DNA from: Okeania sp.
Lineage (GTDB): Bacteria > Cyanobacteriota > Cyanobacteriia > Cyanobacteriales > Microcoleaceae
Assembly (NCBI RefSeq): GCF_035285525.1
Contig: NZ_JAYKGW010000066.1
Coordinates: 1-12,153, forward strand
Length of the DNA stretch: 12,153 nt
Reading direction: 5' to 3'
The notes beneath the pieces are model-generated. The model was not told where the DNA came from. It made no database searches and saw only the letters and a program-made list of their open reading frames with translations. Position numbers and translations under genes: made by a program. Shown here one piece after another: positions 3,828 through 6,589 of the stretch. Numbering within the stretch: position 1 is the first letter of the stretch; the number at the start of each line of letters is the position of its first letter.

Positions 3828-4696
3828 TTGAGTATTTCTCTTGGTCAAGGTGAGGCAATAGCTAGAAGAAATAATCAAAATGAAGGTAGTAAAAATAATC
3901 AAGTTTTGGCTTGTTACGAAGCTATTAAAAGTCAACCTGATTCTGCTGAAGTTTACCAGAAATTAGGGGATGTTTATTACTCTCAAGGTGAAATTGAAAA
4001 GTCTATTCGTTCTTACCAGAAAGCTATAGAATTACAACCTGATTTGGCAATACTTTATGGAAAGTTAGGCAAGTTTTATTCCCAAAAAGGTTAACTATGA
4101 CAGGCGATCGCTTGCTTTAAAAAAGTTATTAATCTTGAACGAAATTCGCCAGATATATATTGGAGTATTAGTCAGATTTTACAGCAACAAGGTAAGTTAT
4201 CTGAGGCTGAGGTTTATCAGGAAAAAGCATTAGAAATTAAACCCGATATAATTACAAAATCTTATGCTTTGAATCAGCTTGATTTTAAACTTACTCGTTA
4301 CCTAGCTTGGGAAAATGGATTTTTTATTGAAGTTGGTGCAAATGATGGAATAAGTTAAAGCAACACTTTATATTTTGAGAAGTATAAAAACTGGCAAGGT
4401 ATTTTGATTGAAGCAATACCGGAGTTGGCGGAAAAATGTAGAGTTAATCGCTCTAAGGTGGAAAATTATGCTTTAGTTTCTTTTAATTATGGTCAGGATT
4501 ATATATAAAAATGCACTATTGTAATTTGATGTCTTTTGTTGATGGAGCGATGAATTCGGAGGAGGAAAAAAGATTTCATTTACAAAGGGGATGTCAGGTT
4601 CAAAATATTAGTAATAGTTATGAAATAAGTGTTCCAACAATGACGTTAACTGGGATTTTTGACAAGTATGGAGTTAAAAATATAGATTTGTTTTCG
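3828..4696 (+). pseudogene. TPR-repeat / FkbM-family methyltransferase fusion gene, 5' part (multiple lesions, truncated by IS insertion)
   Basis: There are three TPR-like units (AEVYQKLGDVYYSQGEIEKSIRSYQKAIELQP...). The FkbM motif GFFIEVGANDG follows. In-frame stops are TAA 4092-4094, TGA 4098-4100 and TAA 4356-4358 (GIS*SN). A +2 frameshift sits in the tatatata run at about 4500-4507. The frame then continues as ...GIFDKYGVKNIDLFS up to 4696. The start is uncertain (TTG 3828 in the track). Confidence 0.7.
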
Positions 4697-4860
4697 GTGA
4701 AGTTCTCTCCCGTTAAATCGAAGATTATAACGGGAGTTTCTAAAACAGAGATGATTGAATCCAAGTTTCAGAAGTTTCTTGCTTCACAGGCTGACTAATG
4801 TCTAAGCCTCCACAAGCAGACAAGATGATACCCACCTCGTTTAATGCTTTATTTAATATG
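4697..4860 (-). ncRNA. Predicted omega-RNA (reRNA) scaffold of TnpB; the 5' limit is a guess
   Basis: By analogy with characterised TnpB systems, the guide RNA scaffold overlaps the tnpB 3' end and the RE and ends at the element boundary. This stretch contains the RE hairpin (4707-4736). The guide would continue into the flank as 5'-CGAAAACAAATCTATATTTT (reverse complement of 4677-4696). Confidence 0.35.
4707..4736 (-). repeat. RE subterminal hairpin of the IS
   Basis: The plus-strand sequence is ctcccgtta-aatcgaagatta-taacgggag, a 9-bp stem with a 12-nt loop. Its foot lies 10 nt from the right-end boundary (4697). Confidence 0.8.
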
Positions 4861-6005
4861 TTAATTGCAGCGTTCTCGTCTCTATCTAAAACCGTTTTAC
4901 ACTTAGGGCAAGAATGAGTTCTAACTGACAAAGATTTAGGTACTTTTTGACCACAATTACTACAATTTTGTGACGTATTTTGAGGGTTGACTTTGATAAA
5001 ATGAACACCGCGTTTTACCGCTACTGCATTCAATTTTTCCAGAAAAGTCCCCCAGGCTACATCATAAATTGATTTTGATAATTTAGTATTTCTAGCTAAA
5101 CCTTTAATATTAAGTTCTTCTACAGCAATTAAATCATACTCTTTAACTAATTTATGAGCAGTTTTATAGTGGAAATTTTCTCTTTGTCTAGCAATATGTT
5201 GATGCAATCTAGCTATTTTATTTTGTGCTTTTTTCCAGTTATTAGAACCAATTTCTTTTCTAGCTGCTTTACTTTGTTTTCTAGCTAAATTAGATTGGGC
5301 TTTTCTATAGAAATTTGGCACAGAAACAGTTTCTCCAATATTAGTAGTTAAAAACTCTTTTAAGCCTACATCAATACCTATCGCAGTTTTCATATTATCT
5401 TTAGGAATTAGACTGGGAACTGACTTATCTTCCAAACTAAAACTGACATAATAGCCATCAGCTTTTTTGATTATAGTTGCAGTTTTCATAGTAAATCCAT
5501 CTGGAATTGGTCTATGAACTATTACTGGAATAGCACCAAATCTGCTAATAATAATTTGCTTACCATCAAATTTCACTGCTGCTTTAGGATGATTGACCCT
5601 ACTAAAGCTTAATGACCTTAGTTTGCCAGACTTTTTAAACCTTGGTCTACCAAATCTTTTACCTGTTTTGTCAGGAATTAACCAACGTTTCCAAGCTTTA
5701 TCTAGTCTTTGTAGATTAATTTGTTGAACTTCAGAGTAAATTTCTTTATACTCAGGAAATAATTGTTTTGTTTCTTTAAGTGCTGATTGCTGAAAATAAT
5801 AATCTGGTCTACAAGGAATCTTGCCAATAGGACATGAAATTGTTGAGCATCGGTCTATTTGACATCTAGTTCTATTTAACCAATCTAATCTTTGAGAAAG
5901 GGCATAATTCCAATGTCTCCTCAAAAGTTCTAACCAATTATCTATCTTAGTCTTAGCTATTTGTTTTGGATTTGGTTTGATTTTGTAACAATGGCTTATT
6001 ATCAT
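4740..6005 (-). CDS. tnpB: TnpB (IS605 OrfB-family RNA-guided endonuclease), apparently catalytically intact
   Basis: The protein is 421 aa. The N-terminus YKIKPNPKQ...RRHWNYAL is OrfB-like. RuvC-I is IGIDVGLK, RuvC-II is IAVEELN, the zinc ribbon is CSNCG...CPKCK and RuvC-III is DRDENAAINI. Confidence 0.93.
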   Translation of the reverse strand: MIISHCYKIKPNPKQIAKTKIDNWLELLRRHWNYALSQRLDWLNRTRCQIDRCSTISCPIGKIPCRPDYYFQQSALKETKQLFPEYKEIYSEVQQINLQRLDKAWKRWLIPDKTGKRFGRPRFKKSGKLRSLSFSRVNHPKAAVKFDGKQIIISRFGAIPVIVHRPIPDGFTMKTATIIKKADGYYVSFSLEDKSVPSLIPKDNMKTAIGIDVGLKEFLTTNIGETVSVPNFYRKAQSNLARKQSKAARKEIGSNNWKKAQNKIARLHQHIARQRENFHYKTAHKLVKEYDLIAVEELNIKGLARNTKLSKSIYDVAWGTFLEKLNAVAVKRGVHFIKVNPQNTSQNCSNCGQKVPKSLSVRTHSCPKCKTVLDRDENAAINILNKALNEVGIILSACGGLDISQPVKQETSETWIQSSLF

Positions 6006-6043
6006 TTCTTTGCTCTTTCGACCAGAACTATATTATAATAGTT

Positions 6044-6066
6044 TGTGTAGAATTTGTCTATACACA
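6044..6066. promoter_or_regulatory. Inverted repeat in the divergent tnpB / RHH intergenic region (candidate operator)
   Basis: TGTGTA-11 nt-TACACA ends 1 nt before the ATG at 6067 and lies 39 nt from the tnpB start. Confidence 0.25.
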
Positions 6067-6237
6067 ATGAAGAAAACAGGATTAAATATACGAATAAGTC
6101 AGAACAGATTAAATAAGCTGAGATTATATGCAGCAGAAAATGAAAAAACGATGACCCAAGTAATAAGTGATTTTATAGATTCACTGAGACTTAAAGACAA
6201 GAAATCAGAAGAAAAACATCAATCGACACCTATTTAA
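6067..6237 (+). CDS. Small ribbon-helix-helix (CopG/Arc/MetJ-like) DNA-binding protein carried inside the IS
   Basis: The 56-aa product is MKKTGLNIRISQNRLNKLRLYAAENEKTMTQVISDFIDSLRLKDKKSEEKHQSTPI. It shows a beta-strand (LNIRIS), helix 1 (NRLNKLRLYAAENEK), helix 2 (TMTQVISDFIDSL) and a basic tail. I prefer the internal ATG 6067 to the track start at 6010. Confidence 0.55.
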   Translation: MKKTGLNIRISQNRLNKLRLYAAENEKTMTQVISDFIDSLRLKDKKSEEKHQSTPI

Positions 6238-6257
6238 TTTGCAGCTCGGCAATTCCC

Positions 6258-6287
6258 ATCCCGTTAAATCGGAGATTATAACGGGAT
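6258..6287 (-). repeat. LE subterminal hairpin of the IS
   Basis: The plus-strand sequence is atcccgtta-aatcggagatta-taacgggat, a 9-bp stem. The 26-nt core matches the RE hairpin at 25 of 26 positions. The outermost base pair covaries (A-T here, C-G at RE). The foot lies 18 nt from the left-end boundary (6305). Confidence 0.8.
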
Positions 6288-6305
6288 ACCCCTTGCCGAA
6301 TCTAG

Positions 6306-6467
6306 TTGGATATTGAAGGTTTTGAATTAAATGTTTTGCAAGGTATTAATTTTGATAAATATCAACCAAAATTTATGTTGATAGAGGTACGTTATGGAGA
6401 TAGAAAAGCTATTGATTATTTTTTAAGACCTTTATTTCAATCTATTGCGGTGTTTTATAATAACTAA
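6306..6467 (+). pseudogene. FkbM-family methyltransferase, 3' fragment displaced by the IS
   Basis: The translation is LDIEGFELNVLQGINFDKYQPKFMLIEVRYGDRKAIDYFLRPLFQSIAVFYNN*, with the stop at TAA 6465-6467. This is the canonical C-terminal FkbM block. Confidence 0.75.
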
Positions 6468-6589
6468 TAACTGAATTTTAACCATTTTAGTTCAGACATA
6501 ATAACTGATAACTAATAACTGAACTTTAAGCCTTTTGGTTCAGCAATAAAAACTGATAACTAATAACTGAAAGTTAACTCATAACTCAA
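6456..6589 (+). repeat. 48-nt tandem repeat x~2.8 (STRR-like heptamers ATAACTG/ATAACTA plus a short hairpin) immediately upstream of the giant ORF
   Basis: taactaataactgaa occurs at 6461, 6509 and 6557, giving an exact 48-nt period. In the first two units it is followed by a ctgaa(t/c)...gttcag stem. Confidence 0.8.

Follow-up and report, generated by a model that had tools for sequence, protein, structure and literature searches.

The window considered here is the whole 12,153-nucleotide (nt) stretch of Okeania sp. contig NZ_JAYKGW010000066.1 (assembly GCF_035285525.1), in which a gene for a TPR-FkbM methyltransferase is interrupted by an insertion of 1609 nt, at window positions 4697-6305, that is bounded by related hairpins and carries two genes in divergent orientation (Table 1). 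The larger gene, tnpB, encodes a protein of the RNA-guided nuclease family TnpB, and the smaller one, referred to as arc, encodes a ribbon-helix-helix (RHH) protein. The active top strand of the insertion is the sense strand of tnpB, which is the minus strand of the window, and the left end (LE) and right end (RE) are named accordingly. The favoured explanation, to which as a whole a probability of roughly 0.85 is assigned, is that the insertion represents a non-autonomous insertion sequence (IS) of the IS605 group (IS200/IS605 family) that is at present probably immobile. The original prediction for this locus, which was made from the letters of the sequence, had already recognized an IS200/IS605 element in an FkbM gene, and the ends, hairpins, target and TnpB domains described below agree with that assignment.

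Table 1. Coordinates of the element, its parts and the interrupted host gene within the window
Feature	Position	Strand	Remarks
5′ part of interrupted TPR-FkbM methyltransferase gene	3828-4696	+	carries further lesions
Flank to be read as guide	4677-4696	-	5′-CGAAAACAAATCTATATTTT (top strand); equals the empty-site protospacer
Whole IS605-family element	4697-6305	-	11 empty orthologous sites; conserved ends of more than 40 copies
RE linker, 10 nt	4697-4706	-	AGAACTTCAC; ends in the right cleavage-site tetranucleotide (C_R) TCAC; first two bases AG
Predicted omega-RNA (right-end element RNA, reRNA) scaffold, ~160 nt	4697-4856	-	overlaps the tnpB 3′ end; conserved helices and the RE hairpin
RE imperfect palindrome	4707-4736	-	9-bp stem 4707-4715/4728-4736
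Right guide tetranucleotide (G_R)	4737-4740	-	GAAA here, consensus GAAG; changed base is window 4737
tnpB, 421 aa, intact	4740-6005	-	RuvC D212, E296, D376; zinc ribbon C348, C351, C366, C369
Divergent intergenic region, 61 nt	6006-6066		promoter-like site and tandem repeats
arc-like ribbon-helix-helix gene, 56 aa	6067-6237	+	divergent from tnpB; in the Y1 tnpA slot of sister copies
Left end (LE)	6238-6305	-	18-nt linker 6288-6305; left guide tetranucleotide (G_L) GGGT 6288-6291; hairpin
LE imperfect palindrome	6258-6287	-	9-bp stem 6258-6266/6279-6287; 12-nt loop; closing pair A-T (C-G in relatives)
Target site and predicted transposon-associated motif (TAM), TCCAA (top strand)	6306-6310	-	CCAA is the left cleavage-site tetranucleotide (C_L); outside the element
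3′ part of interrupted FkbM gene	6306-6467	+	junction with orthologs

The limits of the element are set by natural empty sites. A 62-residue piece of the host gene used as a query recovered orthologs in 11 related genomes, and in 11 of 11 of these TPR-FkbM genes the bases homologous to 4696 and 6306 are adjacent, with neither gap nor overlap, so that the insert comprises exactly 1609 nt and is not accompanied by a target duplication. Joining 4680-4696 to 6306-6329 gives the reading NIDLFS|LDIEGFEL within the FkbM gene, and the uninterrupted orthologs read ...NIDLFS LDVEGFEL... across the same point; in the tnpB-sense orientation the empty site corresponds to ...ACATCCAA|CGAAAACAAATCTATATTTT.... 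Taken alone the junction leaves an ambiguity of 1 nt, because G4696 is identical to G6305, and this ambiguity is settled by the common termini of more than 40 other family copies. These copies were found by searching relatives with the element DNA and with TnpB, and they derive from Okeania, Dapis, a Trichodesmium metagenome-assembled genome and other Microcoleaceae. The right ends of all of them stop at ...AGAGAACTTCAC, with divergence starting straight after CTTCAC, and all left ends begin with C-TWGATTCGGCAAGGGGT and are, with few exceptions, preceded by YCCAA. The original prediction, which had placed the ends to within 1 nt from the FkbM junction and had proposed a survey of other copies for termini and target motif, is thereby borne out and made exact.

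A shifted boundary, in which the element would start at TAGATT and the target would be CCAAC, was considered and rejected; it would require that the right junction contain one C fewer than is observed or that the element's last base be variable. Arrival of the element would have involved a single-stranded DNA insertion 3′ of 5′-TCCAA, without target duplication, into the methyltransferase gene. The family to which it belongs is present in large numbers in Okeania, Dapis and Trichodesmium-like cyanobacteria, and published work on Okeania or Trichodesmium, when searched for this element, yielded nothing specific.

Both ends possess an imperfect palindrome, and the 26-nt cores of the two hairpins are identical at 25 positions, with A-T as the closing pair at LE and C-G at RE. 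The hairpins have the same orientation on one strand, are not accompanied by terminal inverted repeats, and are kept in all copies, with some compensatory changes. When up to three mismatches are allowed the hairpin core occurs in only two places within the 6.5-Mb genome, namely 4707-4736 and 6258-6287 (reversed control: 0). The distance from the hairpin foot to the end of the element is 18 nt at LE and 10 nt at RE, which resembles the arrangement in IS608 of Helicobacter pylori, where subterminal imperfect palindromes are likewise present at both ends on one strand and cleavage takes place at a distance of 19 nt on the 5′ side of the left hairpin foot and of 10 nt on the 3′ side of the right one (PMC3597680, PMC3201880). 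The matching 9-bp stems, the 25 of 26 core positions and the covarying closing pair had been noted at the outset and are confirmed; the approximate 10/18-nt spacing, then likened to that of IS608, compares with a published 10/19 (PMC3597680). Within window 6238-6305 the LE hairpin is enclosed by a further stem of 7 bp (TCGGCAA / TTGCCGA), and in a distant copy (L058) GTCGCGA / TCGCGAC is found at the same position, which is a compensatory change.

In IS608 the four bases located 5′ of each hairpin foot read the cleavage tetranucleotide (PMC3201880). In that system the T at -4 pairs with the second guide base, the first guide base pairs with the C at -3 (a T in the case of the left end), and the A at -2 is unpaired (PMC3201880); from the TTAC/AAAG combination in the same work it may be inferred that the last base of the cleavage site pairs with the fourth guide base (PMC3201880). 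Applied to the present element this rule predicts a guide of the form G-G-x-T for the left site CCAA and G-A-x-G for the right site TCAC. The left site reads CCAA in 21 of 23 distinct flanks and G_L is GGGT in 20 of 23 distinct LE copies, the window copy included, and at the right end TCAC is present in 40/40 copies and GAAG in 33 of the 40 distinct ones. Directly 3′ of the right foot, 36/40 copies have AG as the first two bases, as does IS608 (A-10, G-9). Both ends therefore fit the pairing -4:G2, -3:G1 and -1:G4, with the A at -2 unpaired, at the same positions as in IS608, and to each of the two differences that distinguish the cleavage sites there corresponds one between the guide tetranucleotides, which supports both an IS608-like mechanism and the chosen boundary. 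A Y1 (HUH) TnpA would be expected to recognize the hairpins together with the paired cleavage sites. The window copy alone has GAAA as its G_R, a state that is unique among 40 copies; by analogy with IS608, the altered base would lose its pair with the last C of TCAC, one of three pairs at RE, and right-end cleavage would probably be weaker. The element shares with IS608 the insertion 3′ of a fixed tetranucleotide without duplication, and differs from it with regard to the target (CCAA versus TTAC) and the right cleavage site (TCAC versus TCAA). A further difference is that the autonomous sister copies carry tnpA divergent from tnpB, which is the IS605 arrangement, whereas the two genes are co-directional in IS608; in addition, the window copy lacks tnpA.

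The target motif is well conserved among the left flanks of the family (n = 33), where CCAA occupies positions -4 to -1 in 31-32 cases and position -5 is a T in 20, a C in 11 and a G in 2 (pyrimidine in 31/33). The transposase target is thus YCCAA, and by published logic (PMC8612924; 10.1101/2023.03.14.532601) this motif is predicted to be the TAM of TnpB as well, in the form TCCAA for the window copy. Past the right end, the eight adjoining bases show no fixed base among the copies, and this variation between flanks is what would be expected of a guide. Relatives with a real empty site have the TAM directly next to the protospacer, and one ortholog (L082) has TCCAA joined to a 20/20 match to the predicted guide, so that natural targets are present in sister species. 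A search of the element's own genome for a second site with TAM and protospacer returned only the occupied junction and one chance match with three mismatches, which was equalled by the control. At the occupied junction the protospacer is preceded by TCAC and not by CCAA, and for this reason the element would not target itself. The original prediction had taken the LE-flanking bases as the TAM and had reconstructed an empty site with TAM and protospacer juxtaposed; its strings for guide and TAM agree with the reverse complements of 4677-4696 and 6306-6310, and both the conservation of CCAA and the empty sites of relatives speak for its logic.

The TnpB protein matches the Pfam families OrfB_IS605 (PF01385, 1.3e-25), Cas12f1-like_TNB (PF07282, 6.3e-22) and HTH_OrfB (PF12323, 3.3e-6), and residues 88-400 align with TnpB of ISDra2 from Deinococcus radiodurans (8exa, 8h1j, 8bf8) at E = 1.8e-40. 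In this alignment D212, E296 and D376 stand opposite ISDra2 D191, E278 and D361, of which D191 and E278 are experimentally required (PMC8612924), and the four cysteines of the zinc ribbon form the expected CxxC...CxxC arrangement. As judged from these residues TnpB appears catalytically intact, in accordance with the first reading of the sequence, by which all RuvC and zinc-ribbon residues had been kept. The loss of RuvC catalytic residues that distinguishes TldR proteins is not seen in this TnpB, the D-E-D triad being retained. Compared with ISDra2, the protein has the same D-E-D and zinc ribbon and a longer N-terminal part with a Cys-rich insert, a stretch that contains C48, C53, C58 and C65 (residues ~43-66, window 5830-5880). 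Likewise shared with ISDra2 would be a structured RNA block that extends over the tnpB 3′ end and RE, a guide supplied by the flank and a TAM that equals the transposase target, all three being predictions here, and the predicted TAM itself differs (YCCAA versus TTGAT).

A consensus RNA structure was computed with RNAalifold from the last 240 nt of 26 copies, and it has four local helices in addition to the RE hairpin, with conserved helices located at 4833-4840/4820-4827, 4812-4816/4778-4782 and 4800-4808/4789-4795. Scored on the same alignment from which it was derived, the structure shows compensatory changes at 11 of 42 pairs versus 4.6 +/- 1.5 in shuffled alignments (0/500 reach 11), and 96.6% of cells are paired versus 35-46% when the partners are slid. 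Fragments that retain RE alone are found in relatives and start ~160 nt from the end, which suggests that this point marks the length of the functional RNA block, from 4697 to about 4856. Two such fragments (L048, G003:C526; L049, G019:C368) contain the whole predicted guide-RNA block with unrelated sequence upstream, and they are either solo guide-RNA modules or remnants of truncation. The reRNA and the TAM of TnpB have been described for ISDra2 (PMC8612924) and cleavage of the donor joint by TnpB has been reported (10.1101/2023.03.14.532601); along these lines, TnpB with a ~160-nt RNA made from the tnpB 3′ end and RE, and reading into the flank, is predicted to cleave the empty FkbM site, in which TCCAA precedes CGAAAACAAATCTATA....

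The second gene of the element had been overlooked in the original prediction, and the label "tnpB-only" given there is wrong. The arc gene ends with the same codons (...HQSTP, stop) beside LE as does the tnpA gene of sister copies. Its homologs form 32 clusters, which are cyanobacterial wherever the source is named, and share an invariant core, RLNKLRL...K.MT...ID; in Nodularia-like, Microcoleus and other genomes these homologs are always divergent to a tnpB that is located 35-60 nt away. As the sequences indicate, arc is under purifying selection, with a ratio of nonsynonymous to synonymous substitution rates (dN/dS) of 0.06-0.3 over the first 40 codons and with dN 0.011 and dS 0.086 in the comparison with its closest relative. 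An AlphaFold2 model of the protein (predicted local distance difference test score 82.5, above 93 in the core) consists of an extended N-terminus and helices at residues 12-24 and 29-39. Its top Foldseek matches are Arc (1baz), SvtR and CopG, at probabilities of 0.8-0.9 and with root-mean-square deviations of 1.2-1.4 Å for Arc and CopG, and MazE-type RHH proteins are matched too; as modelled, the protein has the ribbon-helix-helix fold.

The region between the two genes has as its best promoter-like site one on the minus strand, facing tnpB, with a -35 element at 6060-6055, a -10 element at 6037-6032 and 11/12 matches. Tandem 9-nt repeats, TTGTGTAGA and TTGTCTATA, lie immediately before the arc ATG at a spacing of 11 nt and have counterparts in distant arc-tnpB pairs. 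Arc proteins of IS605 elements have been reported, in an October 2026 preprint by Moon, Zedaveinyte, Wiegand and Sternberg (bioRxiv 10.64898/2026.09.24.754181), to bind and repress intergenic promoters of this type. By analogy the repeats are a candidate Arc operator, and Arc of the window copy would most likely repress the divergent arc/tnpB promoter. The two systems have in common a small RHH gene inside the IS and opposite tnpB, and an intergenic region that combines a strong promoter-like site with repeats as a possible repressor binding site. They differ in that the published elements mostly carry tnpA and arc together on one side, whereas here arc replaces tnpA and reuses its last codons; the likeness described here is one of fold and position.

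Several further observations concern arc. A second, diverged arc-tnpB pair is found in the same genome (G000:C98:18308-19619; L002, L003, L014, L016), in which the arc region has 74% DNA identity and tnpB, split over two frames, has 40-46% protein identity, and an arc-like fragment is present on another contig of this genome (C148). For the distant arc-tnpB pairs (L097, L098, L099) a repeat search recovered no common end structure. In two copies (L032, L034) the same GC-rich palindrome of 20-22 nt (GGGGCGATTCGCGAATCGCCCC-like) is inserted in arc, the ATG of which has also been lost; this palindrome may be a small palindromic mobile repeat.

Family members can be divided into three forms by what is found between LE and tnpB. 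The commonest form has ~122 nt with no gene (elements of ~1405 nt); a second has ~507 nt with a divergent Y1 transposase gene (Pfam Y1_Tnp 1.8e-42; L072, L039; elements of ~1810 nt); and a third, to which the window copy belongs, has ~300 nt with the small arc open reading frame. By Pfam, there is no Y1_Tnp among the genes of the window element, and since sister copies with the same ends do have a tnpA, the window copy is a non-autonomous member of the family that must have been mobilized in trans. In a FastTree phylogeny of tnpB, rooted at the midpoint purely for display, the window copy and the other arc-type copies fall into one group of 13 copies with arc and 2 without (Shimodaira-Hasegawa-like support 99). 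This group is sister to a group of tnpA-bearing copies, and the form without a gene makes up a third group. Arc-type copies are followed by at least nine different right-end flanks and have therefore moved, with the transposase necessarily provided in trans. Overall, with TnpB D-E-D and zinc ribbon, C/G pairing, asymmetric linkers and a target that is not duplicated, the element fits known IS200/IS605 and TnpB biology throughout.

With regard to its present state, the element resides in a gene that has decayed. The host gene is a pseudogene with multiple hits: in addition to the insertion it contains stops near 4092-4100, a TAA within the frame at about 4357 (GIS*SNT) and a frameshift at about 4505. 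The gene is intact in 11 relatives. The ortholog in a closed genome encodes 569 amino acids with Methyltransf_21 (FkbM, Pfam 7e-20) and TPR repeats. These further lesions would have been gathered after the insertion. The tnpB and arc frames of the window copy are still open. The element occurs once in its own genome, where the next best DNA match reaches 74% over 186 nt, and a search with the cognate TnpA recovered no relative of that protein in the assembly (97% complete, 260 contigs), which does contain five other Y1_Tnp genes. Being single-copy, having no cognate TnpA that could be found and a mutated G_R, and with the nearest tnpB in any genome only 93% identical, the element is at present probably immobile. 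Elsewhere in the genome (G000:C17:1935-1973; L005:1501-1540) there is a degenerate RE-like hairpin that stands alone, with the tail ...AGATAACTTTAC and with no tnpB in its vicinity; this hairpin is probably the remnant of a family member.

Among the alternatives, continued mobility of the element with active homing, that is, excision by an unrecognized TnpA acting in trans and restoration through cutting of the donor joint by TnpB, is unlikely. The intactness of TnpB and of both ends would be in keeping with such activity, as would the five Y1_Tnp genes of the genome and the clear movement in relatives of arc-type copies that lack tnpA. Yet the element is single-copy, its hairpin core recurs nowhere else in the genome, the 74% match is the closest other DNA, no cognate TnpA relative was found, the 93% identity of the nearest tnpB denotes the absence of a recent burst, the GAAA of G_R is unique among the copies, and the host gene carries other lesions. 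The original prediction had proposed that the nuclease should cut the uninterrupted FkbM allele and so favour retention or homing of the IS, an idea that follows a published model (PMC8612924; 10.1101/2023.03.14.532601) and is not new. Its premise, the juxtaposition of TAM and protospacer in real empty sites, stands, but homing at the present day is unlikely for the reasons just given; and as regards the Y1 tnpA in trans that it had suggested looking for, this genome contains the five other Y1_Tnp genes, and the search with the cognate TnpA recovered no relative.

To regard the element instead as a dead relic, with tnpB and arc as pseudogenes-to-be that lack expression or activity, is similarly improbable. 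This view draws on the isolation of the copy within a pseudogene, on its mutated G_R and on the many family relatives that are frameshifted or truncated, and it is opposed by the full length of both genes with all motifs, by the purifying selection on arc, which extends to the comparison with the closest relative (dN 0.011, dS 0.086), and by the near-consensus promoter that faces tnpB. A domesticated or addiction-type arc-tnpB module, in which TnpB serves as a toxin or RNA-guided regulator and Arc as its antitoxin or controller, like the RHH/MazE-TnpB pairs of archaea for which a toxin-antitoxin role has been proposed (PMC10691335) or like TldR, would accord with the conserved pairing of the two genes across distant cyanobacteria, but is very improbable in view of a canonical D-E-D and zinc ribbon that are neither rearranged nor dead, the enclosure of the pair by intact transposon ends, its occurrence at different sites in different genomes, the lineage-specific position of the window copy in a decaying gene, and experiments on IS605 Arc that gave promoter repression (10.64898/2026.09.24.754181).

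Some results weigh against the favoured reading of a non-autonomous and probably immobile IS605-group element that would be controlled by its own Arc. The Pfam matches of arc (DUF6364, 56B_RHH) are weak and lie below the gathering scores, and the Foldseek matches of the Arc model, all of them RHH proteins, have E values of ~0.6, as would be expected with 40 aligned residues. A scan of 4500-6500 against Rfam at E <= 1 matched no family, and the RNA covariation, with the structure being derived from and scored on one alignment, is supportive and not decisive. That no cognate TnpA was found is the outcome of a single protein query against a draft of 260 contigs, which contains five other Y1_Tnp genes, and the presumed effect of the G_R mutation is taken from the IS608 rule.

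It is conceivable, and at this stage doubtful, that the exchange of tnpA for arc gave rise to a self-regulated, transposase-less IS605 sub-lineage that spreads by TnpA borrowed from sister elements with identical ends, and in which Arc quiets TnpB and its guide RNA or also acts on the TnpB-RNA complex. The arc-tnpB pair would then constitute a two-gene unit that is stable among cyanobacteria (Okeania, Nodularia-like, Microcoleus, Crinalium) and not a product of decay, and it would offer a natural system for how RNA-guided nucleases are tamed towards domestication. Apart from this possibility, the presence of one slot with three cargo states (nothing, tnpA or arc) adds a natural-history detail to the repression of IS605 promoters by Arc and opens no new question. 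The locus is nonetheless a clean worked example in which natural empty sites define the ends to the base; YCCAA, being shared across the family, can serve directly as the predicted TAM of an uncharacterized cyanobacterial TnpB, and the published IS608 rule for pairing of cleavage sites with guides holds in a distant lineage. Possible uses include a compact TnpB editor for filamentous marine cyanobacteria and the annotation of IS elements in Okeania and Trichodesmium genomes.

Like tnpB-only (IS1341-type) elements, and like palindrome-associated and miniature inverted-repeat transposable elements (PATE/MITE derivatives), the window element is non-autonomous and needs TnpA in trans; it differs from the tnpB-only type by its second gene, arc, which is under selection. 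The family to which it belongs includes, besides the commoner tnpB-only form of ~1405 nt, a number of mini-derivatives. One of these (L034:4-61, G001:C194) measures 58 nt and is composed of an 18-nt LE linker, one hairpin and a 10-nt RE linker, inserted after CCAA, and it looks as if recombination between the two hairpins, which are direct repeats, had produced it. Internal deletions also characterize a form of ~130 nt (L077) and one of 792 nt (L078).

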